A DNA stretch of 63,087 bases, filler included, from Octopus bimaculoides (taxonomy: Eukaryota), in assembly GCF_001194135.2 (NCBI RefSeq). It is 7 parts of 7 records of this genome, joined end to end, with 100 filler letters (N's around TTAATTAATTAA, not from the genome) between each part and the next. Parts side by side here need not be neighbours in the genome. Positions count along the whole stretch, not along the records: positions 20,132 to 31,026 come from NC_068996.1; positions 31,127 to 38,260 come from NW_026422213.1; 5 more parts are not named here. One strand, given 5' to 3'. How positions within the stretch are numbered: position 1 is the stretch's first letter; every line of letters starts with the position of its first letter. A program made the position numbers and the translations under genes. The notes beneath the pieces were generated by a model. It worked only from the letters and a program-made list of their open reading frames with translations. It did not search any database and was not told where the DNA came from. Shown piece after piece: positions 10,161 to 32,870 of this stretch.

Positions 10161-10169
10161 CTAAAAGAT

Positions 10170-10470
10170 GAAAAATAAAAAAATAAATAGATAAACTAAA
10201 GATATCAAATTAAACAAGTAAAACAGTAGCAGAAATAAACTTATAAAAAAGACAAATAAAAAATGAATAAAAAAATAAATAAAAAAATGAATAAATGAAT
10301 GAATAAATAAACGAATAAAAAAACGAATAGAAAATTAATAAAAGATAACCGAATAAAAAATAAAGGAATAAACGATAAAAAATCGATAATAAACGATAAA
10401 ACTTATAAAAAATGAATGAAAATAATAAGTAAATGAGTAAAAATAAGATAGGGTAAAATGTTATTTTTTT
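10170..10470. repeat. A-rich low-complexity tract (AAATAA-like), probably PLE 3' flank
   Basis: Composition; lies directly downstream of the PLE ORF on the minus strand. Confidence 0.6.
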
Positions 10471-10489
10471 AAGGAAGGTGCAGTGACAG

Positions 10490-11157
10490 TCATTGCGAGG
10501 AGGAGTTTGTGTTGAGTCCGAAAGGAGTTTGGGTATGTAGAGTAAGAATGTAACGCTGCTCCAGGCGGAGTCTGGAGTTGGTGGATCCATTGCGTAGGGC
10601 AAGGCCGAAGACAGGGATATTTGAGGTGGAGTGGTTGACCAAACGAAAATCACGAGCGACGGGGGTGTTCGTACGTAGACGAACATCTCGTAGGTGGTGT
10701 TCGGTGAACCGGTCGGCTAGGCGGGGAGCATTGGACTAACGTAGAGTTTGTTCCAGAGGTTACACCTGAAGCAATAAATAAGGCTGGAAGAAGTACAGGA
10801 GAAGGCGTTCCTAACGTAGAGGATGTTCTGGTTGGATCCGGTGAGGTAGGTGGTGCTAAAGATGAAGGGACGGGTGTGGCAGCGTGATCTAGAGCAAGGG
10901 AAGGATCCGGGTTGGGTTGGAATGGAGTGGGGAAGTGCTACGGACCAGTAGATCGTGTAGGTTACGGGGGCATTTAAAGGAGGACAAGAGTGGGTTGAAG
11001 AAAATAGGGAGGGTGGTGGAATCTAGATGGAGGCAACCCCTCCACCTTACCACTCTGGCGAAGGGGTAAGGTGGAAGGGTGGAAAAGATGGGGAAAGGGG
11101 ATGCGGTTGGAGGATCGGTGTGGAGAAGGGTGGAAGGGTATCTGCGACGCATATATA
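10490..11157 (-). mobile_element. Penelope-like retroelement, GIY-YIG endonuclease end of ORF (frameshifted)
   Basis: Minus translation ...RNLHDLLVRS...FPCSRSRCHT...AFSCTSSSLIYCFRC...LYV..RLADRFTEH.LRDVR...PVA...LRLEQRYILTLHTQTPFGLN matches the PLE GIY-YIG pattern. Confidence 0.85.
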
Positions 11158-11257
11158 NNNNNNNNNNNNNNNNNNNNNNNNNNNNNNNNNNNNNNNNNNN
11201 NTTAATTAATTAANNNNNNNNNNNNNNNNNNNNNNNNNNNNNNNNNNNNNNNNNNNN
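11158..11257. other. Artificial scaffold-joining linker 1
   Basis: 44 N + TTAATTAATTAA (11202-11213) + 44 N. Confidence 0.97.
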
Positions 11258-11500
11258 GTAGCGGTGGTGCTGGTGCTGGCGGTAATGGTGGTCCTGGTGG
11301 TGGTGGTGGTGCTGGTGGTGGTGGTGGTGCTGGTGCTGGTGATGGTGATTGTGACGCTGGTGCTGGTAATGGCCACGGTGAGAGAGGAAAAGAAAGAATC
11401 TGAAGAAAAAACTGGGTTCTGCGAAGGAGAGTATTCTGTTGTTGTACTTGTTGTAGTTGTTGTTATAGCTGTTCCTGCTGCTTTTATTATTTCTATGTCT
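11258..11500. repeat. (GGT)n/(GTT)n low-complexity tract
   Basis: Direct trinucleotide repeats. Confidence 0.85.
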
Positions 11501-11663
11501 TAACCAATTTAGAAGGAACAACTCGTGTAGCATCTCCCCCCCTACTCCTTTTCAAGGATTTCCAAGACAGGTAAAAAGTGCTGAAGGAACTGTAATAAGT
11601 CATTGGCCTATTACTGTAGGAAACGACATATCAAAGATATTGGGTTCGTCTTCGATCATAAAC

Positions 11664-11764
11664 CTGTTCTGAAGGATTGAAATAGAGAGGACCCCCGTCA
11701 AAATCAAAAGAAAAAATACCCAAGGATCCAGTAATAGTGTTAGTAAACTGGACCAGAACGGATT
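11664..11764 (-). CDS. Candidate exon, unknown product
   Basis: Strong acceptor TTCTTTTTATTTTCAG|; frame (E)SVLVQFTNTITGSLGIFSFDFDGGPLYFNPSEQ; weak donor CAG|GTTTAT. An alternative hydrophobic frame NPFWSSLL...Q* is also open. Confidence 0.3.
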
Positions 11765-12146
11765 CTGAAAATAAAAAGAAGTGATGGTCATGGCTAGAAC
11801 GTCAGCGATCAAAAGCCTTCACGATCAGAACTGACTTAGTGTTATATAACTGTTCCCAGTTGAGGCACAAGTCCAGCGGTTTTGAAGAGAAGGTGGTTAG
11901 TCGACAACATTTGCCACTTTCACCCTCCCATCTACATGAGTGATACTTTAGATTTTTTTCGACTCCGAATGGATGAAAGGCAAAGTTGATCTTTGTAAGG
12001 TTCGAACTCAATACTGCAAAACATTTTGTTCAGCGCTCTACTGATTCTGTTTGTCCACCGACTTGATAGTCGTTGTCATCGGCTTTATCTCGTATCTGAG
12101 AATTTTGTTGCTTGTTTATAGTGATGGCTTTAATGACTCTGTACAC

Positions 12147-12503
12147 CAGTGGTTCCCAAACTTTTTAGAGGTGCGACCCACTATTTATGACACTAGTTTA
12201 TGGTGACCCACTTAACTCTACTGGGTCAAAACATTAATGAAAGAAACAAATTTATTTCAGATTACATTTTCATTGTGGCCTGTGAGAAGGATGAGCCTGT
12301 TTCTTGCTACGCTCAATAATAGAATTAAAAAAGCCTACTGCTTGATAAAACAACCAGTCTGGTATTGAAAACATGAGTCTTGAACTATCTCGATAGACAG
12401 CAGTTAATCAAAGCTAATACGTAATTTTATAACTTTTTGCGACCCACTAGGATTCCGTTCGCGACCTATCAGTGGGTCGCTACTCATAGTTTGGGAACCA
12501 CAG
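12147..12503. mobile_element. hAT (Charlie-like) MITE
   Basis: TIRs CAGTGGTTCCCAAACT / AGTTTGGGAACCACAG (1 mismatch) and internal repeated GCGACCCAC. The 8-bp TSD is degenerate. Confidence 0.8.
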
Positions 12504-12700
12504 CGTAGACCAATTCTTGCTCAGTCGACGGCATTGACTGCATGGCAATGTTGGTGAAGAACGAGCTTTTCTCTCCTGTCTTTGATTTCTTCCCTTTTTC
12601 TTCTGGTGACTTACTCTTTTACTCTTTTAACTGTTTCAATCATTCGACTGTTTCAAACGATTTAGGCCTAATTCCACAGACTTGACCAAGAACTAAATAA

Positions 12701-12880
12701 CCTTTCTATTATAGGCACAAGGCCTGAAATTTGGGGGAGGGCGATAGTCGGTTACATCGACTTCAGTACTGAACAGGTATTTAGTTTATCGACCCCGAAA
12801 GAATGAAAGGTAAAGTTGACCTCGGCGGAATTTGAACTCAGAACGTAGCGACGGGCGAAATACCGATAAGCATTTCGTCC
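12701..12880 (-). mobile_element. SINE family M copy (another degenerate copy at ~11940-12060)
   Basis: ATCGACCCCGAAAGAATGAAAGGTAAAGTTGACCTCGGCGGAATTTGAACTCAGAAC. Confidence 0.9.
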
Positions 12881-13256
12881 AAGGACTAAATAACGGCAAC
12901 GAGAAGTAGTTTTATCGACCAGTGATTTTTGTATGCAACCCGGCGGAATTGGCTCTTAGCACTATTTTCACGGTGAATGTATCGGCCACCTGGGACACAC
13001 TGAAGATCATTCTTGGAGGAGTTATGCCTGGAGTCCGAAGGAAGGAAACACGGAATACCGTGGGAAGGACACGCAACTACTAATTCGCTAATTCGTGCTA
13101 TTATTAATATGGTAGTAAGGTGACAAGTTGGCAGAACTGATAACACGCCAGACAAAATATTTAGCGGCATTTTGTCCCTCTGTAATTTTTTTCAAATGAT
13201 ACTAACCCATACAAATACGCTCTCTTACACCATTTCACAGCACGCCCATGCCCACA

Positions 13257-13311
<55 letters not shown>

Positions 13312-13712
13312 TTCTCTATCTATCTATCTATCGATCGATCTATCTATCTATCGATCTTCTCATGTTTTGTTCTATGTCATTTAGCTTCTGTTCAGAACTA
13401 TCGAACACTGCTAAGCATACTCTGATTCCTTCAAAAAATGTTCGAAACCACGATGTGTTTAAGGTAATAATGAATTTGAATTTGAGACGTTCAGACAAGC
13501 TGCAGAAAACACAGAATATCTGAATATCTTAATATAAAATATATTTCTAAAACACAGTCGTGTTTTCGCATAAAATGTTTTACAAAAGTTTTATATATAC
13601 TCTTCTCTTTTCTTTCACTTGTTTCAGTCATTAGACTAAGACCATACTGGAGCACCGCCTTGAAATGTTTGTAGTCTTTCAATCGATCCCAGTACTTAAT
13701 TTTATTTATACA

Positions 13713-13746
<34 letters not shown>

Positions 13747-13978
13747 CATACATACATATATACATACATACATACACACAAATACATACATACATACATA
13801 CATACATACATACATACATACATGCATACATACATGCATACATACATACATACATACATACATACATACATACGTGGGGGTGTTGTGTGTGTTTCAGTTA
13901 ATTAATCCCTCTAGTAATCAATCTATAAGTCTGTCTATATCGAGCCATCCATTATCTGTCTCTTGATACACACACACT

Positions 13979-14017
<39 letters not shown>

Positions 14018-14456
14018 NNNNNNNNNNNNNNNNNNNNNNNNNNNNNNNNNNNNNNNNNNNNNNNNNNNNNNNNNNNNNNNNNNNNNNNNNNNNNNNNNNN
14101 NNNNNNNNNNNNNNNNNNNNNNNNNNNNNNNNNNNNNNNNNNNNNNNNNNNNNNNNNNNNNNNNNNNNNNNNNNNNNNNNNNNNNNNNNNNNNNNNNNNN
14201 NNNNNNNNNNNNNNNNNNNNNNNNNNNNNNNNNNNNNNNNNNNNNNNNNNNNNNNNNNNNNNNNNNNNNNNNNNNNNNNNNNNNNNNNNNNNNNNNNNNN
14301 NNNNNNNNNNNNNNNNNNNNNNNNNNNNNNNNNNNNNNNNNNNNNNNNNNNNNNNNNNNNNNNNNNNNNNNNNNNNNNNNNNNNNNNNNNNNNNNNNNNN
14401 NNNNNNNNNNNNNNNNNNNNNNNNNNNNNNNNNNNNNNNNNNNNNNNNNNNNNNNN

Positions 14457-14511
<55 letters not shown>

Positions 14512-15246
14512 GTATACATAAACATATATATATGCATGTATATACATGCATACATATATGAACATACACACCCAACGAACAACGCATCAATCTTTTGCGC
14601 CATTTCATCAGTCACCTTCAACACTCCTCGCAGACTTCCTGACACAGTTCTCTTTCTTCTTCAGCTTCTCCTCCTTTTTTTCTTCTTCGAAACAATAAGA
14701 ATATTATAGTTTGGGAAAACTAAACTGCGAAGACTGATGCCAGCAGTAAGTTGAACCAATTCCAGTCTTGATGCGAATTGGCGGATTTATATTCATTTTG
14801 AGTAGTGAGGCTGTGAGTGCATTTTGTGTATGTGTCTGCTTGAGAGTGTATATGTGATAAGTGTGTGTTTGTGTGTATTTGTAAGTGTATGTGTGAATTA
14901 AAGAGATAGAAAACGAACATGTGTGTGTGTGTGTGTGTGTACGTGTGCGGCTATCTATATGTGTGAGTGTGTGTGTGTTTGCGCTCCTGTGCATGAGAAG
15001 TGGTGAGATGGGTATATATATGTGAGCGAGAGTATAAGTTTATATACGCATTGGCGCGTTTCTATTTTTTATGTATGTATATATGCATATTTGCATGTAC
15101 GTATTTTTGTATATGTATGAGTAATTATGTAAATAATATGTAAGTATGGATGGATGGATGTGTATGTATGTATGTATGTATGTATGTATGTATGTATGTA
15201 TGCATGTGTGTGTGTGTATGTATGTATGTATGTATGTATGTATGAA

Positions 15247-15592
15247 GGCGCGTGGCTCAGTGGTTAGGGCATCGAACTTACGATCGTGGGGTTGTGAGTT
15301 CGAATCCTGGACTGGGCTGCGTGTTGTGCTCTTGAGCAAGACACTTNNNNNNNNNNNNNNNNNNNNNNNNNNNNNNNNNNNNNNNNNNNNNNNNNNNNNN
15401 NNNNNNNNNNNNNNNNNNNNNNNNNNNNNNNNNNNNNNNNNNNNNNNNNNNNNNNNNNNNNNNNNNNNNNNNNNGAGGCCGGTATGCATGGGTGACTGCT
15501 GGTCTTCCATAAACAACCTTGCCCGGACTTGTACCTGGAAGGGTAACTTTCTAGGTGCAATCCCATGGTCAGTCATGACTGAAGGGGGTCTC
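15247..15592 (+). mobile_element. CORE-type tRNA SINE (family C1), spans N gap
   Basis: A box TGGCTCAGTGG, B box GAGTTCGAATCC, then GTGCTCTTGAGCAAGACACTT (CORE-like). The tail matches 25688-25790 inverted. Confidence 0.85.
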
Positions 15593-16502
15593 AGCATCTA
15601 TGTATGTATGCATGTATGTATATGCATATATTTGTCACTGCATCTATGAATCTATAATGTTAGACTTAACTCAGTGTTCATATACATATATATCTGTCTA
15701 TCTATTCTTGTGTCGATATACATATATTTACCTCTACGTGTGTATATGCAACTGTTAAATACTAAACTTCTGCAATGTTATACTGTATATTCTATTTTCA
15801 CAGTACTTTTAATAGTTTGTAAATATAATTTCTTCATTATCTCCTTCCTGTCTTGTTCTGTGGAGCCCAACTTCTCAAAACTGATCATAAGGAATTTAGC
15901 TATCCATCCAAACGCCCTAATAACCACGTACCTCGGTTGTTGTATCTGAGAAGCTTTCTTTAGTTTGGTATGGATGTTTTTCTTTTTATCTTTAGCTTCA
16001 TGTTAAAGTCTGCTGAACAATTGATTTCTACAACCGCGCACACTTCCTGTTCTCTTTTGTCTTATATCGGTCTGTTGTGCTTGCATTCTACAGAATCTTT
16101 GGCAGGAATATTCCACCAGTATTCTTCCATATTATGGCTGAGTGTGTTCCTTCACATCACCGTAACTTATTTCATTTTGATCAACTGAGCTATCTTTCCC
16201 AGAGGTAAGCCTCAAAAATTGCTGAATGGTAGACGTTGACGAATAGAGTTGACGAAGCGACATTCAGTGGGTGCTAGGATCGTTTTAACCTTTTGCCTCT
16301 ACATTTCCGGTTAAAGTAGAGGTTGTTCAATAGTGCTGTTGGTGTCGAAATTTGTTAATTATTAGTTATCAGGTTTTAATATCAACGACCCGGATCTCAT
16401 CTAGCGTCCAATAAACCCAGATATTAGTATGAGTGGTTGAACGGTGTGGGCTTAGCGAAATTAGGAGGCAAGAGGCAGAGATCGTCACCCACCCACCTGC
16501 TG

Positions 16503-16511
16503 TATATAAAG
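16503..16511 (+). promoter_or_regulatory. Possible TATA box of a Pol II promoter
   Basis: TATATAAAG in unique sequence, preceded by CCAAT (~16408) and CCCACCCACC (~16488). A possible first-exon donor AGT|GTAAGC lies at 16615. Confidence 0.3.
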
Positions 16512-16939
16512 CGATGCGAAATATCCTCTGAGCTATTAGATATTGTTAGTTAAAGAGGAGAGACCACAACTGTCTTTGTCAATTGGCGTTGATATTCATT
16601 GCTTATGACATAGTGTAAGCGAATACGTGCGTGTGTATGTATGTGTGTGCACGCATAAATGTGTGTGTATGCCTGTGTCTGTCTCTGTGTGTTAGTACTT
16701 GTTTGTGTGTGTGTGTGTGTGTGTGTGCGTGCGCGCGTGCGGGTGAGTGAAGGAATTGTACATTTCTGTCAATATAATTAAGTGTATAATTAACTCGGAA
16801 TTTCGATTAGACAAAGCATAAACACACATATACATACACATGCATAAACACACATATACATACACATGCATAAACACACAAACACGTACATACAGTACAA
16901 GCATATACATAGTCATATGTGTATGTGTGTGTGTGTGTA

Positions 16940-17401
16940 TACGAGGGGAAGTAAAAAATTATCCACACTTTCGTCATAGCATATCTTTATTATTGTCACA
17001 CTGCCTTCTGCGCATGCGTACTTATAGTTAGTATTATTGTGGTCATGTGATCGAAGTCTGAGCCTGATCATGCCATTTTTCTTTCTGGCTTTACAGTGTA
17101 AGCCTGGCCGCTCTACTAGCGATGTGCACCAAAGAAGAACAAACAGCAGTGATCCGATTTCTCTGGTCGGAAGTTGTGTACAATCAACAGTGCAAGATAC
17201 AGTACTTTGCTGACCAACAAACTGAAGCCAGCAATTCGCATCAAACGCCGAAGCCTATTGTCGAAGAAAGTTTTGTCGACAATGCACGCCCATACACGGC
17301 TTTCATACCGTTGAAACCATTAACCAATTGGGTTTTGAGGTGCTGGAAACACCCTGCCAACAGTCAAGATTTCGCGCCTTCCGGCTATATCTTTGGACCG
17401 C
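16940..17401 (+). mobile_element. Internally deleted mariner (DD34D) remnant
   Basis: TA-CGAGGGG terminus; TKEEQTAVIRFLW (HTH) and DNARPYTA...HPANSQDFAPSGYIFGP (HDNARPH...HPPYSPDLAPSD-like). The right end is in an N gap. Confidence 0.85.
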
Positions 17402-18329
17402 NNNNNNNNNNNNNNNNNNNNNNNNNNNNNNNNNNNNNNNNNNNNNNNNNNNNNNNNNNNNNNNNNNNNNNNNNNNNNNNNNNNNNNNNNNNNNNNNNNN
17501 NNNNNNNNNNNNNNNNNNNNNNNNNNNNNNNNNNNNNNNNNNNNNNNNNNNNNNNNNNNNNNNNNNNNNNNNNNNNNNNNNNNNNNNNNNNNNNNNNNNN
17601 NNNNNNNNNNNNNNNNNNNNNNNNNNNNNNNNNNNNNNNNNNNNNNNNNNNNNNNNNNNNNNNNNNNNNNNNNNNNNNNNNNNNNNNNNNNNNNNNNNNN
17701 NNNNNNNNNNNNNNNNNNNNNNNNNNNNNNNNNNNNNNNNNNNNNNNNNNNNNNNNNNNNNNNNNNNNNNNNNNNNNNNNNNNNNNNNNNNNNNNNNNNN
17801 NNNNNNNNNNNNNNNNNNNNNNNNNNNNNNNNNNNNNNNNNNNNNNNNNNNNNNNNNNNNNNNNNNNNNNNNNNNNNNNNNNNNNNNNNNNNNNNNNNNN
17901 NNNNNNNNNNNNNNNNNNNNNNNNNNNNNNNNNNNNNNNNNNNNNNNNNNNNNNNNNNNNNNNNNNNNNNNNNNNNNNNNNNNNNNNNNNNNNNNNNNNN
18001 TATATATATATACACATACATACATACAGGACTACGTACATACATTTATATATATACATACGTATGTGCATACATATACTTACGTACATATAGTTGCATA
18101 CACACATAGTAGAGCATGCATAGAGACATACGTACATACACACTCGTACACACGCACAGATATACACACACGCACACACACACACACATGCACACATACA
18201 TACATACATACATACACACATACATACATACATACATACATACATACAAGCATTCATGCATACATACATGCATAATTACCGACCAACTGAAAAACAAGAT
18301 CTTCCCGGATGTTAAAAATCCCTCAGGTT

Positions 18330-18388
18330 ACATCATCATCACCATCATCATCATCATCATCATCATCATCATAACAGTAATAATAATG

Positions 18389-18443
<55 letters not shown>

Positions 18444-18468
18444 TAATAATAATAATAATAAATAATAC

Positions 18469-18502
<34 letters not shown>

Positions 18503-18550
18503 TAATAATAATAATGATAATAATGATAATAATAATAATAATAATAATAA
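18330..18550. repeat. (CAT)n/(AAT)n microsatellite
   Basis: Direct trinucleotide repeats. Confidence 0.95.
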
Positions 18551-18649
18551 ATAATTTCTCTTCTCTTGCCTTCAGTCATTTTTGTTGAAATACGATTCAG
18601 TGCGTGTGTGTTTGTGTTTGGCTGTGTGTATGAGTGTGTGTGTGTATGA

Positions 18650-18680
<31 letters not shown>

Positions 18681-19749
18681 TCTGTTTTGTGTGTATCTAA
18701 GCTATTGTCTTGTGTGTTGTTGGGATGGGGTGTTGCCGTTTCCACTTCTCGCCTGCTTGCTATAATCTTGCTCACAGCTTTCTGACTCAAGCTCCCCGAG
18801 GTTAAACTACAAAGCAATCAAATGTATAAGACTCCCCTCAAAGTATATATTTCTCTCGCACCTTCCTCTCTCTCTCTCTCTCTCTCTCNNNNNNNNNNNN
18901 NNNNNNNNNNNNNNNNNNNNNNNNNNNNNNNNNNNNNNNNNNNNNNNNNNNNNNNNNNNNNNNNNNNNNNNNNNNNNNNNNNNNNNNNNNNNNNNNNNNN
19001 NNNNNNNNNNNNNNNNNNNNNNNNNNNNNNNNNNNNNNNNNNNNNNNNNNNNNNNNNNNNNNNNNNNNNNNNNNNNNNNNNNNNNNNNNNNNNNNNNNNN
19101 NNNNNNNNNNNNNNNNNNNNNNNNNNNNNNNNNNNNNNNNNNNNNNNNNNNNNNNNNNNNNNNNNNNNNNNNNNNNNNNNNNNNNNNNNNNNNNNNNNNN
19201 NNNNNNNNNNNNNNNNNNNNNNNNNNNNNNNNNNNNNNGTACTTGACCATTACTATGTCCCTTCGCTGCTAGCTGACCAATAAAATAAGTACAAAGCTTA
19301 AAATTTAAAAAAATAAGCATTACTGTTGACATGTTCGACTAAAACAGAGTATCTGAAACCTTTTTTATCTAAAGACCCTTTGATTCCTATTTTACTTGAT
19401 GGAACCGTCCGAGGCATTCGATGTTTAAAAAATCCTGTCCATGTTTTTATAATTAAATGTTATTATGGTTGTATAAAAATAATTGAAAATATTTTGTGTG
19501 TTCTAGAAGTATAACCAATTTATTGCTCATAAATTCTAACAACAAAATCTTGTATGGACTCCGGTTGAGAATCTCTGGGTTAAACCCTTCAAAGCAGTGC
19601 TCCAGCATGGCCGCAGGTTAAATGACTGAACCCTCATTTGTCGTTCACGATAGGGAGACAGATTTAGAAAGCAACTAATTTCCACCTTTAATCAATTAGG
19701 ACTTAAAATTACAGAGGCCATTAATCTCTCTATAATTGATTATTTAGAT

Positions 19750-20031
19750 GTTTCCCTAGGTTTAAACTCCTCCTCTTCCTCCTCGTATAAACCTTTCCAT
19801 AAGCCTAATGAGAAACTCGCATATATACATAAACAGTCTTGTCTCCCTCCTGTAATATTTAAAAACCTGATAGTTAATACTAGTAACAGAGTGTCTAACT
19901 TCTCTTCTTCCAAAAAAAATTTGAGAAAGCTACCCCCTATTATAACAAGACCCTAGCCAATAGTGGCTTCAAAGATAAATTAATATATAATCCCTCTAAT
20001 AATAGTCAAAATATTAACGGTAGATCTAGCG
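19750..20031 (+). mobile_element. Penelope-like element RT C-terminal fragment
   Basis: YKPFHKPNEKLAYIHKQSCLPPVIFKNL...RVSNFSSS...FEKATPYYNKTLANSGF matches the PLE Y.KPN...Y....S.HP.....RLS..SS...F....P.Y..AL..SG pattern. Confidence 0.8.
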
Positions 20032-20131
20032 NNNNNNNNNNNNNNNNNNNNNNNNNNNNNNNNNNNNNNNNNNNNTTAATTAATTAANNNNNNNNNNNNN
20101 NNNNNNNNNNNNNNNNNNNNNNNNNNNNNNN
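20032..20131. other. Artificial scaffold-joining linker 2
   Basis: 44 N + TTAATTAATTAA (20076-20087) + 44 N. Confidence 0.97.
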
Positions 20132-20206
<75 letters not shown>

Positions 20207-20249
20207 GCCTGACCAAAAACTATTGGGATTGGTGTTATAAAAAGAAAAC

Positions 20250-20520
20250 TACAATACATATTGCTTTGGAATATAATCTCCTTTGAAGTTGTCCCTTTCT
20301 GGAGCCATACACTTTATCTTTGATGGAAGCATTCCTGGAACTCTCTTTTTGAAATTGGGAGCAGCTGCCTTATCACATTCTCTTGGATTTCCTCAATGTC
20401 TTAAAATCTTGTTGAGGTCTTCAGCTGCAATGACTGAGCCTTAGTTTCACAGTCATAGCCATAGACCCCTGAATCATCACTTGTTATGACTGCTTTTTCA
20501 ACTCAGTCAAGGAGATCCTA
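20250..20520 (-). mobile_element. Mariner remnant
   Basis: Minus VITSDDSGVYGYDCETKAQS resembles ITGDESWVYGYDPETK.QS; the 3' end resembles GDYFEGD. Confidence 0.65.
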
Positions 20521-20526
20521 TGCATT

Positions 20527-20900
20527 TGTAGTAACGCCTTAGCAGACGACATGTCCGGTAAGCTTATCCACGCATGCGCGGGGACAAGTTCCGGAAGGAA
20601 CACGGGAAGAGTCTCGTGCGCATGCGTGGTCATTCGAGATCCAAGTTTCGCGCCCTGATTCATTCTCTTTCTCAACCGGCCAGCCATGAGCCCAGACGTT
20701 CAAGCTGTCTCTCTCCAACATTCCAACTCTGGAGACAGCTCTTTCCAACATTCCAACTCTGGAGCTAGACAAATAACCAACCAACATCACTGACGGCGTC
20801 TCAGCAACCAAAGGGCGAAGTGCTGACTATTTCCTCTGTAAATAAATATTGTGTTGATGGTTCAGAATCTGCGTTCTGTTGTTTCTTCAGAATTTAATGT
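20527..20900. mobile_element. Possible solo LTR
   Basis: GC-rich block starting TGTAG, with a ~29-bp internal direct repeat (CCAACATTCCAACTCTGGAG x2) and AATAAA near 20842. No TSD or clear CA end found. Confidence 0.3.
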
Positions 20901-21869
20901 ACGGAAGCAGCTATACACCTAATGGTGTATAACCACTTTCCTACACATTTGAACCCTGATGTGCAAATAAGGATACACACCATAGAAAGACAGAATGGAC
21001 TAAACAGAACAGGGAGATACACATGGGATGGAGAGCCACTGAAGAGGTCACAGGATGTGTGACAGAAGATTTCAGACAAAGGACAGTAAAGTAAGAACAA
21101 TAATAAATCTGAAGTGAAACATGAGTATACAGTGCATGTGTTTATATGGCAAAAAAAAAGTATAACCATCCCATAAAGTTAAAATTGTGCAATGAAGTTA
21201 AAATAGGTTTTAAAAAAATGAAATTTCACAAAAGAGAAAATTTATTTTATTAGATACTGAAAAGAATAAATTCATTGATATATATTTGTATGTATTGATT
21301 AAACCTAAATTTTATGTGTATTTCTGGTTTTTAGCAGAACTGTTGTATTGGACTGCCACTTAAGAGCTATTTTTAACACTCTCTATGGCTTACCCAACCC
21401 TTCAATGTTGAAAATTATTTGACCCCATGTGAATCAGGTCATTAGAACACAAACAAAACTCTAGCAAGACTGTATAGATTTTCTATAAAATAAATTTCCA
21501 GCTTCAAGGTACTTTTACCATTATTAGTTATTGGTAATCAATGCCAACTGCTAATATTGATTATTTGCTTCTTTTTTCCCAATACATGAAACAGGCCTCT
21601 TTAAGAATATAAATATTTATTACCATCCAATTGAGAGTGTATCTACTTACAGTTTTAATTCTTTGTACCTGTTATTTAGGAATTTTAAATTTACCATCAA
21701 AAGTAACTACTTTTCCTTACTATGTACAGTATACTGGGTGTTTCTCAATCATATTACAGTATATAGTTTTTATGTATCATTTAAATTTGTTGTTAACTAT
21801 TATGTGAATTTTTATCTGAGGATAATTAAATTGAATCATTTCCTTTCACTGTAGCATTGCTGGATCTTT

Positions 21870-22998
21870 TTGAAGTTGATTGTGGAGTTTTTTCGTTATT
21901 GCCTTATTGAGCTTACTAGTCAACGTCTGAGAAGTCTCTTGATTCTATCAATAAGCCACTGCCATCTCAATCTACATGCTGAAAATATGTTGATATGCTT
22001 AGTGCAAGCACGGTTGAAAATTGCAAGAGCTGCCTGGCTGATCAAAATATATTTTTAATTGTTGAGGAAAATGAGATCAATGACAAAAAAATTGTTAATG
22101 TACTTATTGGTTCAGTTAAAAAAATTTTTTAAACACTCTTAATAGAATGTCTGCCACTTAAATCAATTCTAACTGCCACAATCATCACACAGATCAAACA
22201 TGATTTGCTAATAAGTTTGAAGATCCTAAGAGAAAATTTTCTCCTATTATTGTCTGATGCTGCTCAGTATATAGTAGCAGCTGGAGAAACATTGTGAGTT
22301 GTGTACCCTAAGCTCTTCCATGTAACCTGCTTGTCTCAACTACTGCATAATTATGCTCTAAAAATAAAGGTTTTCTATCCTCCAATCGATTGTCTGATTG
22401 CCACCACCAAGGCTGTTACTGTAAAAAGCAAACACCATTGAAAGCAATTTAAAACAATCAGATACTCCCACTTAGCCAATTGTGACCAGGTGGGGTAGCT
22501 GGTTGATGCCTGAAATTACTGTGCTAAGGATCTTGCAGAAATTACAAAAATTGTAGAGAGGTTTTGGAACGAAGATATTTTGGTGTGGAGAGTGAAAGAA
22601 GTTGTGTGAAATCTTGAGATCAAGACTAACCTCACCCAAATCTGTTTAAACTATCTGCAGTTTAAATAGTTAATTTTGAAACCTGATTCAACAGCCTTCA
22701 CCGTCTACAAATCTTACAAAAACCTCAAAGAATTGAAATTCAACAAAGATTTATGTGTATCATGAATTATTTTGACTGTAGACTCAATAATGACCAAATC
22801 AATTTGAGTGTTCATCTAATGAGCTCCAACGTTTCACTTGTGGAATATGCAGATCTGAGACAATGCCAAGTGACATCAGCTTCTGTAGAACACAGTTTTT
22901 TGGATGCTGAAAAAATCTTTGCAAAAGACAGGAATTTTTTACCTACAAATACAAAGCATTATATCATATTGTACTATAATAAATTTCCACAATATTGA
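21870..22998 (+). mobile_element. Decayed hAT transposase (DUF659/CGGBP1-like)
   Basis: LLLSDAAQY..AAG..L...YPKLFHVTCL..LLHN, IVTRWGSWL and TSASVEHSF...KI....R...N..YIILYYN; multiple stops and frameshifts. Confidence 0.75.
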
Positions 22999-23059
22999 TC
23001 TTTTTAAATTGTATTGATAATTCTTATATATCATAAAGTAATCAAAACTAGAGCAAACT

Positions 23060-23660
23060 CCCTAATGTTAGTTGTCCTCATCATTTAGTATCCATTTTCT
23101 ATGGTGGTATAGGTTAGATGGTTTGATTGGGATTGGTAAGATGGAGAGCAGCACCAGGCTCCAGTCCGTTTTCTATGGCTGGATGCCCTTCCTAATACCA
23201 ACCACTCCACAAAGTGTACCTTTAACATGTGACCAGCACAGGTGCCTTTTATGTGTCACTGAAGTGGGTACCTTTTACATATCACCAGCACTAACCACAA
23301 CTACAACTTCACTTGGCTTCATGTGTTTTCTCAAGTACAGAATATCATCAAAGGTCTCAGTCACTAGTCATTGCCTCCATGAGGCCCAACATTTGAAGAT
23401 CATGCTTCGCTACCTCATCCCATGACTTCCTGGGTCTACCTCTTCCACAGGTTCCCTCCACAGTTAGAGATTGGCACCTCTTTACACAGCTGTCCTCGTC
23501 CATACACATCACATGACCATACCAACACAGTCGTCTCTCTTGCACACCACATCTGATTCCTCTTATGCCCAACTTTTCTCTCAAGACAGTTACATGCACA
23601 CTGACATTGCACATCCAGCACAGCATACTAGCTTCATTTCTTTCAAGTCTTCACAAGTCT
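23060..23660 (-). mobile_element. RTE-clade LINE 3' fragment
   Basis: RRLCWYGHVMCMDEDSCVKRC..LTVEG..GRGRPRKSWDEVAKHDL..LGL, followed by a 3' UTR shared with 26520-26700. Confidence 0.88.
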
Positions 23661-23832
23661 GCAGCCACAGTCCCATGGATTTATTAATTAAAATAAGAAT
23701 AAACTAAGGTTAAAAATCTGTCAATTAAAGTTTAAAAATAAGGTTAGAAAAGTATGAAAATAAGATTAAAATCAAGAAATTTTTAAGGTAAAAAAAAATT
23801 GCTCTACCTATTATTCATTTTACTATTTACAT

Positions 23833-23875
<43 letters not shown>

Positions 23876-24328
23876 AACGCACGCACACACAAACACACAC
23901 GCAGACACACACACACACAAATGCACAGCCTCATTTAATTTTCATTCTGTTATCTACAATCTACAAATATTTATTAATTGTAGCTAATGAGCAATAATTA
24001 CTTTCAAACTATTTTTTGATTGATGGAGTATTAAAGACGTATTTCAACTCTTAAACTGAAACTGTTCCATCCTTGTTGTTCAGATTATAAAATGCAGATC
24101 TTTGTATTGAAAGAACACAAAGAATAACAACATCCTTACATGTGGAGTTAAGGTTGTGATCTGTAGGGCTTGGCAGACATCAGGGATAGGTCACCCACTT
24201 AAGTTGGAATTTCTCAGTTTAGATGGGGATTTTATTTTCATGGTTTCCTTTGACGTTATGGGGAGTGGGGGGAGGACATCTATTCAGCAAAAACTTTTTT
24301 CTTTTTCTTTAACATAGAGGTTTCTCAC

Positions 24329-24466: not shown

Positions 24467-24869
24467 CTGTCAAAACAGACAAATTCCAACTTATGTGAAC
24501 GACGTATCCCTAACATCCATCCAGGGATTATATTCTTGCTTGTCCATACTAGTTTTAATGTGAGAGTCAATCTGAGCAATTCCATCCCTTACACATGGAT
24601 CCCTACCTATTCAGCAAGCTAAGATTGCTACGGTGAGCAGTAAGCTGTAGGTTTTGCATTGGGATGGTCTTATCCAAAGTGAATCACCTTACAAGCCAGT
24701 AAGCCTCTGCAAAGTCTGTAAATATTTGAAAGGCAAAAACAGAAAAAAAAACTGACTCTGTAGAGAGCATTAACTTCATTAATTCCCTCAGTCCAAGGAC
24801 GCTCCGTCTAACTTCACTCTCTAGGAAAAAATTAAAAAGTTGCATATGCAGCCCAAGTGTAATGATTGC

Positions 24870-25328
24870 AGACAAACCAATGGACAGAATCACAAAACTA
24901 TTCAGGAGTATAACAATAATAGGCCTATTTCCTTTCAACTACCATATTTGTTCATTACAGGAAAACTAACGGAAGGAATTAGAAAAATGTTCAGGAGAAT
25001 AACAATAATAGGCCTATCTTCTGTCAAAGTCGACTTTGCCTTTCATCCTTTCAGGGTCAATAAATTAAGTACCAGTTGCATACTAGGGTAAATCTAATCG
25101 ACTGGCTCCTCCCCAAAAATTTCAGGCCTTGTGCCTAACATAGAAAAGAATAATAGGCCTATTTCTCAACTACCATATTTGTTCATTACACGAAAACTAA
25201 CAGACAGAAGCAAAAAATAATTCAGGAGAATAACAATAATAGGCCTGTCCTTCAAATGCCATATTTGTTCACTGCAGGCAAACTAATGGACAGAATCACA
25301 AAATAATTCAGGAGAATAACAATGATAG
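24870..25328. repeat. ~86-bp minisatellite array (continues 28714-28779 and 29688-29940)
   Basis: Unit ~ATAATAGGCCTATTTCTCAACTACCATATTTGTTCATT.CAGG.AAACTAA.GGACAGAATCACAAAA.AATTCAGGAGAATAACA. TAATAGGCCT recurs at 25151 and 25237. A SINE M fragment interrupts at ~25015-25150. Confidence 0.85.
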
Positions 25329-25687: not shown

Positions 25688-26013
25688 TGACCCCTTCAGT
25701 CATGACTGACCATGGGACTGCACCTAGAAAGTTCCCTCCAGAGGCACAAGTCCAGGCAAGGTTGTTTTCATGAAAGAGCAACAGTCACCCATGCATACCA
25801 GTCTCCCCTCCACCAATGTTATCCAAGGGAAAGGCAAAGGGGCCGATACAGCTTGGCACCAGTGATGTCGCAACTCATTTCTACAGCTGAATGAACTGGA
25901 GCAACGTGAAATAATGTGTCTTGCTCAAGAACACAACACGCAGCCCGGTCCAGAATTCGAACTCACAACCTCACAATTATAAGCTCAACACTCTGACCAC
26001 TGAGCCATGCGCC
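25688..26013 (-). mobile_element. CORE-type tRNA SINE (family C1), full length
   Basis: Reverse complement of the 15247-15592 element: GGCGCATGGCTCAGTGG...GAGTTCGAATTC...GTGTTCTTGAGCAAGACAC. Confidence 0.88.
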
Positions 26014-26015
26014 TT

Positions 26016-27670: not shown

Positions 27671-28779
27671 CCTGAGGGGATTTGTGATCATTATTTAACA
27701 AACCACTCAGTTGCGAGATGGAATGAAACACAATATAGACAATAGATGCAACTGCACATGCACATGTACACATATACTCACTATAGTTATGTATATGTTT
27801 AGCATGTCTTTTTTCAGAGTCAAACATTAGAAAATAAATAAAAAAAGTATAAATTTATTTAAAAACATATGAAACTTTTAAAATTGACGAAAGTAATTTA
27901 AGATGTGTGCAAATATTTCATATGACAGTAGGTAATGTGAACAACTGACAATATACATCTGGGCTGCATTAAAAGTACCAAATCCTTATTATTCTCAAGG
28001 TCGTCTAAACCCACCGTTTGTGTGTGAAACAGTGAAATTCTCTCTGGATTATCGTCGCCATTCTCGTATAATGAAAACTTTTCACCATTTTCAAGAAGTC
28101 TATATTCTTCAGGTATTATATACCCGCTTCTTCCGGTTGGGATTGGAGGGAGCTTGGCTTTTCTTTTGCCCCCAACCTCTAATATTGCGAGACAAATGCA
28201 ATGATTTTGGCATCAGTAACAATGCATTATCATCTAAACTAGATGAAATTTCTGCAATTAACGACCGTGCAGAAGTTTATGAATTAGTGGCTGGTGATTT
28301 CAATTTCATTTTTGCAATGCAAACTTTTGGTTTTGAAGGATGAGGAGGATGGCAATGCTCACCAAATGTTTTTACATAGAGATAAATTCTCATTTTCTTG
28401 CACAGTATGCACTCTTTGTTTACATTCTCTATTTTCATATTTCCAATATGTTTTTCACCATATTTTCTGCCTCTGCTAGTTCCCACTTGAAAGACCATTG
28501 TAATGGGTTGCCTACACAAAAAAATATTGACAAATGAATAAAGAAATTTTAAATGAGTTAAGAAATTACTTTACCCCTTCTTATTGGTTGAAACAATTAT
28601 ATACCAAGGGGTTCCAATTCATCTTTTGTCTTGCAGCAAACTTTCCTACAGCCAAAAATCCTGAGATGAATTTTCTTGCGGCAAAAATGTTAGCAGCAAA
28701 CTTTCCAAATATGAATAGGCTTATCTCTCAACTACCATATTTGTTCATTGCAGGCAAACTAATGGACAGAATCAGAAAA

Positions 28780-29687
28780 TATTGGATCGTCCCATAAATA
28801 ATGCATTTTTTTTCAGTTGCATGAACAAAAAGTCAGAGGGGGACAGGATCAGTTTGCTATAAAGGCAGGAAGTAATTTTACCTTGTTCTTATTCTTAGTG
28901 CAGGTTTTGAAGAGTGCAGTTTGATTTTAACAGTTATTTTTTCAAAGCTATAATGGAAGTGACAAAGGAGCATATTCAGCATATTTTGCTTTATGAATTC
29001 TATAAAGGCAACAACGCATTAGAAAGGGTGAGGAATATTAATGCAATATATGAGTATTGAACAATAAGTGTAAGCCAGTATCAATGGTGGTTCTAGAAAT
29101 TCCAAGTTGGAAACTACAGCCGAGAAGATGAGCCTCATCTTAGAGAATCTGTAGAGCTTGACGAGGACATCCTGCAAACCCTGGTAGAACAAAATCCCAT
29201 CGTAACTGTTGAGGAACTAACAGAGAAGCTTGGGTTTGGTCACTCACCCATTCATCGGCACCTGCGGGCCATTGGAAAAGTCAGCAAATTGGATCAATGG
29301 GTTCCTCACTAACTTTCCGAGTTTAATCATGCAGTCACATACAGTGAGGATGACATTCCAAAGACTGGAGCAGTTTGAATGGGAAACGATGCCCCACTCA
29401 CCATATTAGCCAGACATTGCACCATCTGATTATCATTTATTTCGCAGTCTTCAAAAATCATTTGGACAGAAAAAATATGAGTTCTGTAGACCAGGTCAGA
29501 ACAATACCAGAGGAGTATTTTTTGTGAATTTTGGGAGAGGGGTTATGCAAGTCTACCAGATAGATGGAAGAACATTTTAGAAAATGAAGGAGAGTATATT
29601 TTAGATTACAAAATAACTTTGTTTATCTTAATTTTGAAAAACAAAACAAGTATAAAAAAAACACATTACTTGTGGGATGACCCAATA
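28780..29687 (+). mobile_element. Mariner (DD34D) deletion derivative with both TIRs and TA TSD
   Basis: TA|TTGGATCGTCCCATAAATAATG and CATTACTTGTGGGATGACCCAA|TA. ORF from ATG 28953 reads MEVTKEHIQHILLYEF...LRAIGKVSKLDQWVPH, then PHSPY.PDIAPSDYHLFRSL; the catalytic core is mostly deleted. Confidence 0.92.
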
Positions 29688-30349
29688 ATTCAGAAGAATA
29701 ACAATGATGGGCCAATCTCTCAACTACTGTATTTATTAGGCAAACTAATGGACAGAATCACAAAAATATTCAGAAGAATAACAATGATGGGCCTATCTTT
29801 CAGCTGCTGTATTTGTTCATTGCAGGAAGACTAATGAACAGAATTACAAAATAATTCAAGAGAATAACAATAATAGGCCTATCTCTCAACTACTATATTT
29901 GTTCACTGCAGGCAAACTAATAGACAGAATCACCGAACATAAGTACCAGTCATGTACTGGGGTCAATGCAATTCACTTATATACTCCCTTCAAATTGCTG
30001 GCCTTGCGCCAAAATTTGAAAGCGTATTCAGACGGTTTCCAGTTCTTCATCTCAGCTAACTTTCTCTCAACTACAACTTTAATCATTTTGCTTTCCAACG
30101 CCACCAACATATCAAGAAATTCCTGAAAACAAGAGCAATGAATAAACTGTTAAATTTAGCTCAAACATTGTAGGGACACAAATCTTTTAATTATCCTTTG
30201 CATAATTATGTATTAATTTAGTTGTCCGTTGTTTAATTAATGGCCTCATAATTCCTATTTATGATTATAATTCATGTAATTATCTACTAATTAATAATGT
30301 TTTGTTTTTTGGTGTTATATGAGAACTACATGGGAATATCTGCTTTATA

Positions 30350-30602: not shown

Positions 30603-30603
<1 letters not shown>

Positions 30604-30870
30604 TTTACATTATCTACATTTGACGGATATTCGTCCTCATCTTGTTTGTTGTTAACACAACGTTTCGTTTTCTGATATACCCTCCAGCCTTCGTCAGGTG
30701 TCTTGGGGAAATTTCGAACCTGGGTTCTCATTCCTATCGATGTTACTATTATTATTATTATTATATTATTATTATTACTATTATTAATCAGGTCGCTGCC
30801 GTGAATCGAACTCGGAACCTTGAGGTTAGTAGCCCGCGCTCTTAACCACTACGCCATATGCCCGTGGGCA
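30603..30870 (-). mobile_element. tRNA-headed SINE with hammerhead-bearing tail (family H), copy 1
   Basis: A box TGGCGTAGTGG (30846-30856), B box GAGTTCGATTC (30803-30813), (TAA)n spacer, then tail GACAC-CTGACGA-A-GGCTG...GAAACGTT-GTGTT. Confidence 0.8.
30654..30702 (-). ncRNA. Minimal type I hammerhead ribozyme motif, stem II damaged
   Basis: GACAC CTGACGA A GGCTG GAGGGTATAT CAGAAAAC GAAAC GTT GTGTT. Confidence 0.5.
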
Positions 30871-31026
30871 ATTATGGGGTGAATTTTAAGGCTTATAAAT
30901 CTATTATTTTTCTATCCTTCCTCAATACCGGTTCCCATATGCTATTCATATCTGCACTCAGTCTGCTTAGGAGGTTGTTGTGTCCTAGCATATGTGCTGC
31001 TTCTTTTAGTTTTCGTATTTTCCAGT

Positions 31027-31126
31027 NNNNNNNNNNNNNNNNNNNNNNNNNNNNNNNNNNNNNNNNNNNNTTAATTAATTAANNNNNNNNNNNNNNNNNN
31101 NNNNNNNNNNNNNNNNNNNNNNNNNN
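31027..31126. other. Artificial scaffold-joining linker 3
   Basis: 44 N + TTAATTAATTAA (31071-31082) + 44 N. Confidence 0.97.
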
Positions 31127-31377
31127 TTAGTTTTGTTTCTCAATGTTCACCACTCAAATCTTACCAGGATTGATAAAAACCATCAAGTTCCTATCAAGTA
31201 CTGAACTTGATTAAAAGACATCTTCCTGAATCCTGGGCCTTTGTCACATATTATCATTGTTATTATTATTGTTGTTGTTATTGTCAAGACAGTGAGCTGG
31301 CAGAATTGTTAGAACATCAGGAGGATTGCTTCATGGCATTTCTTCAGGCTCTTTACATTCTGTTCTATATTTAAGAG

Positions 31378-31560
31378 ATGAGGAATTATGTACATTATTT
31401 ACAATTGACGGATATTTGTCCTCATCTTGTTTGTTGTTAACATAACGTTTCAGCTGATATATCCTCCAGCCTTCATCAGGTGTCTTGGGGAAATTTTGAA
31501 CCTGGGTTCTCATTCCTAAGGTATTTTTTGATGTTACTATTATTATCATTATTGTTATTC
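31378..31560 (-). mobile_element. Family H tail without head, inverted and abutting copy 3
   Basis: Reverse complement of 31640-31800; contains HHR motif 31439-31484. Confidence 0.8.
31439..31484 (-). ncRNA. Minimal type I hammerhead ribozyme motif
   Basis: GACAC CTGATGA A GGCTG GAGGATATAT CAGCT GAAAC GTT ATGTT. The core is intact; there is one stem I mismatch. Confidence 0.55.
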
Positions 31561-31800
31561 CCACGGGCATATGGCGTAGTGGTTAAGAGCGTGGGCTACT
31601 AACCCTAAGATTCTGAGTTTGATTCCAGGCAGTGACCTGAATAATAATAGTAATAATAATAATATCGAAAAATACCTTAGGAATGAGAGCCCAGGTTCGA
31701 AATTTCCCCAAGACACCTGATGAAGGCTGGAGGATATATCAGCCGAAACATTGTGTTAACAACAAACAAGATGAGGATGAATATCTGTCAAATGTAAATA
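31561..31800 (+). mobile_element. tRNA-headed SINE with hammerhead-bearing tail (family H), copy 3
   Basis: A box 31572-31582, B box 31615-31625, (AAT)n spacer, HHR motif 31712-31757. Confidence 0.82.
31712..31757 (+). ncRNA. Minimal type I hammerhead ribozyme motif
   Basis: GACAC CTGATGA A GGCTG GAGGATATAT CAGCC GAAAC ATT GTGTT. Stem I GACAC/GTGTT and stem II GGCTG/CAGCC pair; stem III has a G>A change. Confidence 0.55.
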
Positions 31801-31809
31801 ATGTCTTTA

Positions 31810-32870
31810 CATTCTGAACTCAAATGTCACCAAGGTCAAATTTGCCTTTCATCCTTTTGGGTTCGATAAAACTAAGTACCTGACAAGTACGGGGTGGGGG
31901 TGGGGTCAATGTAATTGACTTACTCCCTCCCCTTCAAAGATTGCTGGCCTTGTTGTTGTTGCTGCTGCTGCTGTTGTTTGGACATTGAGTTGGCAGAACC
32001 ATTAAGAGTGGTGGCACTTTACTTTCTGAGTTCAAATCCTACCAAGGTTAACTTTAACTTTTCACCTTTGCACCTGTCAAAAGATACCAATATTAAGACT
32101 AATTAAAGCAGCAAGCTGGTAGAATTGTGAGCATAGTAGACAAAATGCTTAGAAGCATCTTGTCTGACTTTATGTTCTGGGTTCAAATTCCACTATGGTT
32201 GACTTTGCTTTTCATCCTTTGGGGGTTGATAAGATAAATACCAGTTGAACACTGGGGTTGATGTCATCAACTTACTCCCTCCCTTAGAACTGCTGGCCTT
32301 GTGCCAAAATTTGAAACCATTATTATTATTGTGGCAAAGGAGCTTTGGTACAGAGAGTAAGCAAGCTAACCTCGAATCTTCCCTACAGTACCACTTGCAT
32401 AGTATTTGGGGGTTTTTAGTTCAAACCTTACTGGGTTTACCACCTTAACTTTAATCTGTCTTAGGATTAGTGAAATGTGTAAGTGGCTGGAGATGGTTCC
32501 ATTAATTATATTGTCTAGCTTAATCACCATAGCAACTGGAGTCAGGTAAGAGACTGTCACCAGCAGACTTACTGGATACCTTGTAGTGTTTAGTTTACAT
32601 GGTTTACTGTAGTGAATATTGTCACAGTTTGATAATGCCTTTCTTAGCTCGGGATGGGGGTGGAATGTTCATAAAATGAGTATCAGTAATATACCGGGGG
32701 AGGGTACATTGAAACAACTATATTCTCTTAAATGTGGTCCATACTTGATCAAATTCATCCTTTTGGGGTCGATATAAGTACCAGTTGAGTACTGGGGGGG
32801 TTGATGTAATTGACTAGCCCCCTCCCCCAAATTTCAGGCCTTTTGCCTATAGCAGAAATTATTATTATTA
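31810..32870 (+). mobile_element. Cluster of degenerate SINE family M copies
   Basis: Repeated TTTGC.TTTCATCCTTT.GGGGT.GATAA...AGTACC motifs at ~31840, ~32205 and ~32755. Confidence 0.8.

Follow-up and report, generated by a model that had tools for sequence, protein, structure and literature searches.

A tRNA-headed short repeat of Octopus bimaculoides with a Penelope-type minimal hammerhead and the insertion footprint of a Penelope-like element

SINEs are defined as passengers of LINEs. In Octopus vulgaris, according to the accessible part of an octopus repeat survey, 893 of 900 recently active SINE families are unclassified. Endonuclease-positive (EN+) Penelope-like elements (PLEs) insert in a layout of their own, described in the accessible text of two papers as an inverted 5'-truncated copy, a tail of 30-40 bp at one end, a short target duplication and a palindrome at the junction; the target duplication is optional (PMC8557442, PMC3846280). 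Their terminal repeats, the pLTRs, contain the first codons of the PLE ORF (PMC3846280, PMC11167929, both in excerpt). For PAc of the anole, the consulted sections equate the tail with the stretch between two reverse transcription start sites and name uncut RNA as the main template (PMC11167929). The consensus of the minimal PLE hammerhead, as excerpted, lists an extra base between positions 9 and 10.1 as conserved, and the same source already reports pairs of PLE hammerheads on opposite strands, 100-700 bp apart (PMC4209133).

We analysed 63,087 nucleotides of Octopus bimaculoides DNA (GCF_001194135.2), seven parts joined by filler, called the window below. It contains three copies of one short repeat, whose parts are listed in Table 1. 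Three matches to the hammerhead core pattern, all within 30654-31757, were found in the window versus 0.35 expected, and none of 100 shuffles reaches three. The three tails are 90-93% alike. The heads of copies 1 and 3 are 89% alike (72/81 aligned positions), each joined to its own tail via an (AAT)n spacer; a preliminary description, made from the same DNA, had placed two of the three tails behind a Pol III-type head and such a spacer, and copies 1 and 3 show exactly that. Overall, the arms formed by copies 2 and 3 resemble each other (117/126) no more than they resemble copy 1 (118/129 and 117/129, respectively). The gap at 31027-31126, like those at five more places, is made of two 44-N runs flanking a 12-bp filler and is an artefact.

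Table 1. Parts of the three repeat copies and of their immediate surroundings, in window positions.
Feature	Position	Strand	Remarks
Copy 1 tail	30603..30741	-	Damaged hammerhead 30654-30702; runs up to a (TA)n microsatellite; lacks the 30-nt extension
Copy 1 (AAT)n spacer	30742..30787	-	
Copy 1 head, tRNA-like	30788..30869	-	A box 30846-30856, B box 30803-30811; ARAGORN at 90% threshold
Stop-to-head stretch, 23 nt	30870..30892	-	Worn inverted copy of the first ~25 nt of the head
43-codon frame and stop	30893..31024	-	Likely Penelope/Poseidon GIY-YIG endonuclease C-terminus; cut by the gap at 31027
Left 13-bp direct repeat	31350..31362	+	Target duplication, of which as much as 5 bp could reflect microhomology to the end of the element
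Copy 2 30-nt extension ("tail")	31363..31392	-	Absent from copies 1 and 3; pairs back on the post-hammerhead stretch
Copy 2, inverted headless arm (spacer and tail)	31393..31559	-	Hammerhead 31439-31484
Copy 3 head	31560..31640	+	A box 31572-31582, B box 31617-31625 (CpG-decayed)
Copy 3 (AAT)n spacer	31641..31663	+	
Copy 3 tail	31664..31803	+	Minimal type I hammerhead 31712-31757, predicted cut after 31752; without the extension
Right 13-bp direct repeat	31804..31816	+	Flanks on both sides rejoin as one older SINE

Both heads have an exact A box with a B box 34 nt further on, which is the type 2 spacing, and in copy 1 the two boxes are both exact. The combined pattern has three matches in the window, one of them in another SINE at 15253, for a shuffle mean of 0.055. 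The B box sequence quoted in the preliminary description is indeed found in copy 1, and in that copy only. ARAGORN calls neither head at its default setting; at the 90% threshold it calls the head of copy 1 alone, a result reached by 0 of 500 shuffles. The acceptor stem of the tRNA is not retained. Both heads begin at the same small hairpin and copy 3 starts 12 nt before its A box: this 5' end is no proof of a Pol III start, because the same point coincides with the hairpin. TTTT is absent from the sense strand of all three copies, a weak sign on a strand that is A-rich. Each of the two heads in the window meets its tail in the same register, and in one contig of run X11, tentatively labelled as RNA, the tail is connected to part of a different head copy in inverted orientation. 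A protein search with the frame spanning head, spacer and tail found none among its four candidates. A further tRNA-headed SINE, with A and B boxes also 34 nt apart, occupies 15245-15587 and has a relative at 25691-26015.

In every tail the hammerhead motif retains its two core boxes, as well as the extra A that follows A9 (3/3 copies). The shared motif first proposed for the three tails is a composite: the tails are there and the majority of the family has it intact, but no single copy in the window has it whole. Stem II of copy 1 is broken by a 3-nt insertion; copy 2 has a changed last base in stem II and one mismatch in stem I; in copy 3 helices I and II are whole and the palindrome is lost at 31750. 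The G that restores this palindrome accounts for 57-86% of the depth in each of four read runs (shares computed from the depth table), and the intact hammerhead is the norm of the family. Positions 15.2-16.2, those of the dimer pairing, are palindromic in two of the three copies and in the family majority.

The motif fits the published minimal consensus of PLEs, CUGANGAH ... GAAAN with NUH and the extra base between 9 and 10.1. It has the helix I of 4-5 bp and the G10.1-C11.1 pair of helix II, whole only in copy 3. The extra A after A9, singled out in the preliminary description, is present throughout and is nothing special, being a listed conserved feature of PLE minimal hammerheads. The U at the cut site (position 17) recurs in several of the PLE examples shown in the excerpted source (PMC4209133). 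We compared variation along the 46 positions of the motif, setting aside four CpG positions, all of which vary. Variation of at least 5% in some run affects 6 of 9 free positions (N7 and loop II) versus 0 of 33 core and stem positions (p 1.6e-5), a pattern to be taken as support and not as proof, since the positions are non-independent, the seeding is biased towards conserved letters and the loop readily undergoes slippage.

An Rfam scan of the repeat returned neither tRNA nor hammerhead, just microsatellite and hairpin noise. Minimum-energy folding fails to yield the hammerhead (z -2.1 and -0.5), help from a dimer or a protein lying outside such modelling, and the 3' stem folds mildly better than shuffled sequence (22 of 500 shuffles as good). 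From the cut site to the two 3' ends of the element there are 51 and 81 nt, so the predicted cutting would remove the priming end. A weak ribozyme, dependent on a dimer or a protein, would fit such a cut site. Outside the octopus, 12 metagenome and two viral loci that match the core pattern of 18-20 nt were discarded as chance, their likeness not extending beyond the core; pattern scans gave no match in prokaryote genomes and, for the head, none in viral contigs. Elsewhere in the window, at 53312 (minus strand), another hammerhead-like motif, unrelated and with a single core mismatch, lies beside a 66-bp palindrome; the region around it, 53205-53343, matches 48239-48309 in inverted sense.

Copies 2 and 3 are a single head-to-head insertion within a 13-bp direct repeat. 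This repeat, at 31350 and 31804, is the sole one of at least 8 bp in a box of 100 by 100 nucleotides (chance 4e-4); it sits at both ends of the element, and the flanks rejoin into one older SINE. The insertion begins with an inverted headless arm that bears a 30-nt extension and continues with a whole head-spacer-tail unit that lacks it. The extension, present on one arm only, reaches up to 35 nt if microhomology is counted. The examination of target duplications and termini proposed at the outset gives a 13-bp duplication around copies 2 and 3 and a one-sided 30-nt tail, neither of which the preliminary description had mentioned. An inverted 5'-truncated arm, a one-sided tail and a target duplication are all traits of PLE insertions.

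The two arms share a variant at 31734 that is held by at most 7% of the depth in all four runs. They differ at 10 of 140 sites, seven of them CpG. The shared rare variant and the mostly CpG differences fit one template followed by later decay. The end of the spacer of copy 2 is more like that of copy 1 than that of copy 3. We rejected a second insertion into the spacer of copy 2: its head is absent beyond copy 3, and one duplication frames both copies. For copy 1, comparison of the flanks gives no target duplication longer than 5 bp, so that one of the two insertions has a duplication. Direct partial tandems, as in pLTRs, do not occur in the window; possible hints of tandems come from single-contig back-jumps in the read runs. 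The host of the insertion, an older and very common SINE, extends over 31270-31349 and 31817-31960 and is found at more than 15 other places in the window.

The family is very abundant. From four of 24 listed runs, 16,419, 24,004, 8,062 and 1,110 contigs were aligned to copy 3, that is 8,062-24,004 per DNA run, with a depth that covers the tail only. In run X1, the summed depth of ~7 million, set against 42-72 per listed single contig, suggests copies in the order of 100,000, a figure that is no true copy number. A frame is open through the tail in all three copies; in copy 3 it runs from an ATG at 31683, before the hammerhead, to the end of the tail. Across tail and extension together, 50 codons are open, with a chance of about 0.02 per frame, which would be expected of a pLTR that contains the beginning of the ORF. 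Protein searches with the tail frame returned 31 matches: 14 to the same family, 13 to a sister family and four to unrelated repeats. Four of the 14 family translations include the extension, one includes a part of it and nine end or diverge earlier, some of these perhaps through a stop or a frameshift. In addition, 37 loose contig ends in run X1 resemble the extension at 50% agreement. By these comparisons the extension belongs to the element, whose independent copies fall into two classes by their 3' end.

The protein searches gave no long protein that begins with the tail frame, and none of the 31 matches is reverse transcriptase-like. Searches for a partner by protein retained none of two candidates and one of six, the latter being a WD40 gene model of O. 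bimaculoides. This model, P0001, begins with 17 residues of the tail frame and is either an exonised repeat or an annotation error; translations of the tail are present in two O. bimaculoides gene models altogether. The sister family (P0004-P0007, P0015, P0019, P0022, P0023, P0025, P0026 and P0028-P0030) has a homologous tail and a different upstream part, and 6 of its 13 translations hold two head-to-tail units starting at the hammerhead. A further subfamily, detected by loose ends at 31694-31713 in runs of three organisms, has the same hammerhead and another linker upstream. The tail itself has no poly(A), does not match the LINE fragments of the window, and contains an imperfect 9-nt tandem repeat near its 3' end.

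A frame of 43 codons precedes copy 1 on the same strand, running from the gap at 31027 to a stop placed 23 nt before the head. Its first 21 residues align by eye and without gaps to the last endonuclease block of a Poseidon sequence, taken from the accessible supplement of PMC8557442, with 8/21 identities (W1, R4, K7, E8, A9, H11, L19 and R21). Two patterns derived from this block, written after the frame had been seen, match this place only in the six frames of the window and nowhere in 150 shuffled windows. Pfam, NCBIfam, PHROGs and PDB searches with the 43 residues gave no match, Pfam being equally blank for the two other PLE fragments of the window. No alignment was obtained to the Neptune-like one of these fragments, and a structure model made without alignment is a single helix.

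Between stop and head, the 23-nt stretch repeats the start of the head in inverted and worn form; 4 of 5000 random 30-mers score as high. The resulting palindrome resembles those at the 5' end of rotifer pLTRs, as far as these are described in the excerpted text of PMC3846280. We consider the frame to be the likely C-terminal end of a Penelope/Poseidon GIY-YIG endonuclease, judging from its residues and position. With a gene end followed by a terminal repeat, copy 1 resembles the 3' end of an autonomous PLE, in this single copy. At its other end it lands at a (TA)n run without target duplication.

Other pieces of mobile elements are scattered over the window. The PLE fragments pointed out earlier, at 10490-11157 and 19750-20031, hold up as leads and have no link to the repeat. 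As candidate partners, 10490-11157 and 19654-20031 were set aside: a relaxed scan detects no hammerhead nearby, and they share no DNA with the tail. At 10490-10735 (minus strand), again with no hammerhead nearby, we see the end of a GIY-YIG-like frame, Neptune-like by eye; its Atlas neighbours are mollusc proteins, including one cluster with GIY-YIG on 15% of its members. The segment 19654-20031 (plus strand) encodes a fragment of a PLE reverse-transcriptase thumb (Atlas score 0.96-0.97; HTH_animal on 17% of one cluster), by eye close to a PLE of the Hydra clade. A broken LINE-type reverse transcriptase covers 8573-9682 (minus strand; RVT_1, E 2e-14 and 2e-6), and the region 29000-29600 holds what we take, by eye, to be a decayed mariner-like transposase. 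Short tandem units of ~80 bp, all of one family, make up 24858-25328, 28714-28783 and 29684-29933. Finally, 38423-38554 and 38763-38895 form a 133-bp inverted pair, 98% alike.

We hold it very probable that the repeat is mobilised by a PLE. The initial proposal of PLE-driven rather than LINE-driven mobilisation is well supported by the insertion footprint and the endonuclease end, evidence that it had not invoked, while the SINE with a borrowed tail that it had in mind is one of two readings. The junction hairpin and the adjacent endonuclease end count among the evidence for PLE mobilisation. That the tRNA-like head is native to the PLE is a reasonable expectation, held with distinctly less confidence. 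Taken as a whole, the unit would by a narrow preference be the pLTR of an autonomous Penelope/Poseidon element whose native head works as a Pol III promoter and which spreads in the manner of a SINE. The gene link is known from one copy, over 43 codons cut by a gap.

A more far-reaching reading is given a little under an even chance: an autonomous PLE may have built a tRNA-derived Pol III promoter into its pLTR and launch from it a SINE RNA of its own, 250-300 nt long and inserted at perhaps 100,000 sites, the parent being at the same time the partner. The A and B boxes would let RNA polymerase III copy the unit alone, from about 13 nt before the A box, into an RNA that holds promoter, hammerhead and priming tail. 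The enzyme of the parent element would spread this short unit like a SINE. The PLE protein would bind the RNA between hammerhead and tail and nick AT-rich DNA; reverse transcription could then start at either of two points 30 nt apart, as shown for PAc of the anole. After target-primed copying, the new strand might fold back at the 5' hairpin or switch template, giving the inverted arm. Cutting by the hammerhead would require a dimer or the help of a protein. Since the copies continue for 51 and 81 nt beyond the predicted cut, uncut RNA is the likely template.

The head may instead come from an independent tRNA-derived SINE that acquired a PLE 3' end and depends on that PLE in trans; the autonomous element would then have no tRNA head. 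All PLE footprints fit this origin equally well, and the sister families, which share the tail and differ upstream, imply that heads can be swapped. The endonuclease end before copy 1 would then be due to a one-off template jump or to an insertion at the junction of a PLE gene and its repeat, a place akin to the site that the PAc endonuclease prefers, just after its own ORF-pLTR junction (PMC11167929, in excerpt). Insertion into a PLE should however leave the rest of its pLTR behind copy 1, where we find a (TA)n run, and a jump onto PLE RNA would normally be expected to land at the tail, not just past the stop. The 23-nt worn inverted copy of the head is, moreover, older than copy 1 itself. 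We regard such a capture as unlikely, if a serious competitor; the frame upstream of copy 1 makes a pLTR with its own head somewhat more likely than a borrowed tail. Less probable again is that the short copies are 5'-truncated stumps of a Pol II transcript of the PLE, with the tRNA-like piece as a passenger and fold-back at the hairpin. In the accessible text of PMC8557442 and PMC3846280, most PLE insertions are truncated and show palindromes at the inverted junction, and here copy 3 starts at the hairpin, copy 2 is headless and the acceptor stem is lost. Yet the A and B boxes of copy 1 are exact and correctly spaced, the 5' end lies where a Pol III start is expected, and the family is very abundant.

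Mobilisation by a LINE, of a SINE having a PLE-derived hammerhead in its 3' part and an inversion due to twin priming, seems to us highly improbable. Twin priming yields non-overlapping arms, whereas both arms here repeat the whole tail; poly(A) is missing, the 30-nt extension is unique to one arm, and a PLE endonuclease end precedes copy 1. What speaks for a LINE is the imperfect 9-nt tandem repeat near the 3' end, short tandem repeats being found in some LINE tails, along with the LINE fragments of the window and the 13-bp duplication, since target duplications are normal for LINEs. We give still less credence, close to none, to the idea that head and tail are separate repeats brought together by chance at (AAT)n microsatellites. 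PAc cuts at ATT, which would allow PLE stumps to insert into an AAT run (PMC11167929, in excerpt), and the protein search across the head-tail join was empty; against this, both heads are joined in the same register and with matching divergence (heads 72/81, tails 118/129), and the X11 contig joins the inverted piece of yet another head copy to a tail.

If the unit is indeed a pLTR with a Pol III promoter of its own, Pol III parasitism would be extended to the Penelope class, in parallel to Cassandra and Helenus among LTR elements. Such a SINE would have as its partner the telomerase-related enzyme of a PLE that is simultaneously its parent, and part of the large and mostly unclassified SINE load of octopuses would be driven by PLEs. 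Thousands of insertions of a natural 250-nt substrate would become available for the study of PLE integration, with its two starts, its inverted arms and the role of the hammerhead. The partnerless alpha elements of Schistosoma might find an explanation as well.

The openly accessible full-text literature yielded in its consulted portions no tRNA-headed element with a PLE footprint and no tRNA-derived promoter in a pLTR. The accessible parts of two octopus repeat surveys name no such element; Repbase or Dfam may already have a name for the family. The closest known counterparts are the Penelope/Poseidon pLTRs, which, as excerpted, share with our repeat the hammerhead, the inverted truncated arm, the tail of 30-40 bp, the target duplication, the junction palindrome, the probable position of the repeat right after the endonuclease end and the overlap with an open frame; the promoter described for them is TATA/Inr-like, whereas the tRNA-like head and the (AAT)n spacer are features of the repeat studied here (PMC8557442, PMC3846280, PMC11167929). 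The minimal type I hammerheads of metazoan PLEs are the same motif, with core, G10.1-C11.1, a 5-bp helix I, palindromic 15.2-16.2 and U17 in common, and by the accessible description ours differs from them only by its place behind a Pol III-type head (PMC4209133).

Sm-alpha and Sj-alpha of Schistosoma are likewise abundant short repeats in which a tRNA-derived Pol III promoter precedes a hammerhead; their hammerheads are canonical and often in tandem, multimers are cut to monomers, and the excerpted sources name no partner (PMC6765202, PMC2770079). Compared by description, the octopus repeat differs from them in its minimal hammerhead, in copies that run past the cut site, and in its PLE footprint and neighbour. 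The non-LTR retrozymes of animals and non-autonomous PLEs such as MRC1 are, like our repeat, short non-coding units thought to be carried by PLEs (bioRxiv 10.64898/2026.07.22.740005, PMC7229834, PMC8557442, PMC6685494, in their accessible parts). Retrozymes are defined, in the accessible text of the preprint, by two or more successive head-to-tail units in which the hammerheads are complete (bioRxiv 10.64898/2026.07.22.740005), unlike the copies of the window, which are single or head-to-head. No tRNA head is described in the consulted portions for retrozymes or MRC1 (PMC7229834, PMC8557442, PMC6685494), and the preprint, in the same limits, has no term for a promoter or Pol III. Cassandra, Helenus and Ajax have a Pol III promoter derived from a small RNA inside a terminal repeat, as here, and are non-autonomous LTR elements, Penelope being absent from the available text (PMC10886601). 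The ribozyme and the footprint are already known; what is new, to the extent of the papers found, is their combination with a tRNA-like head.
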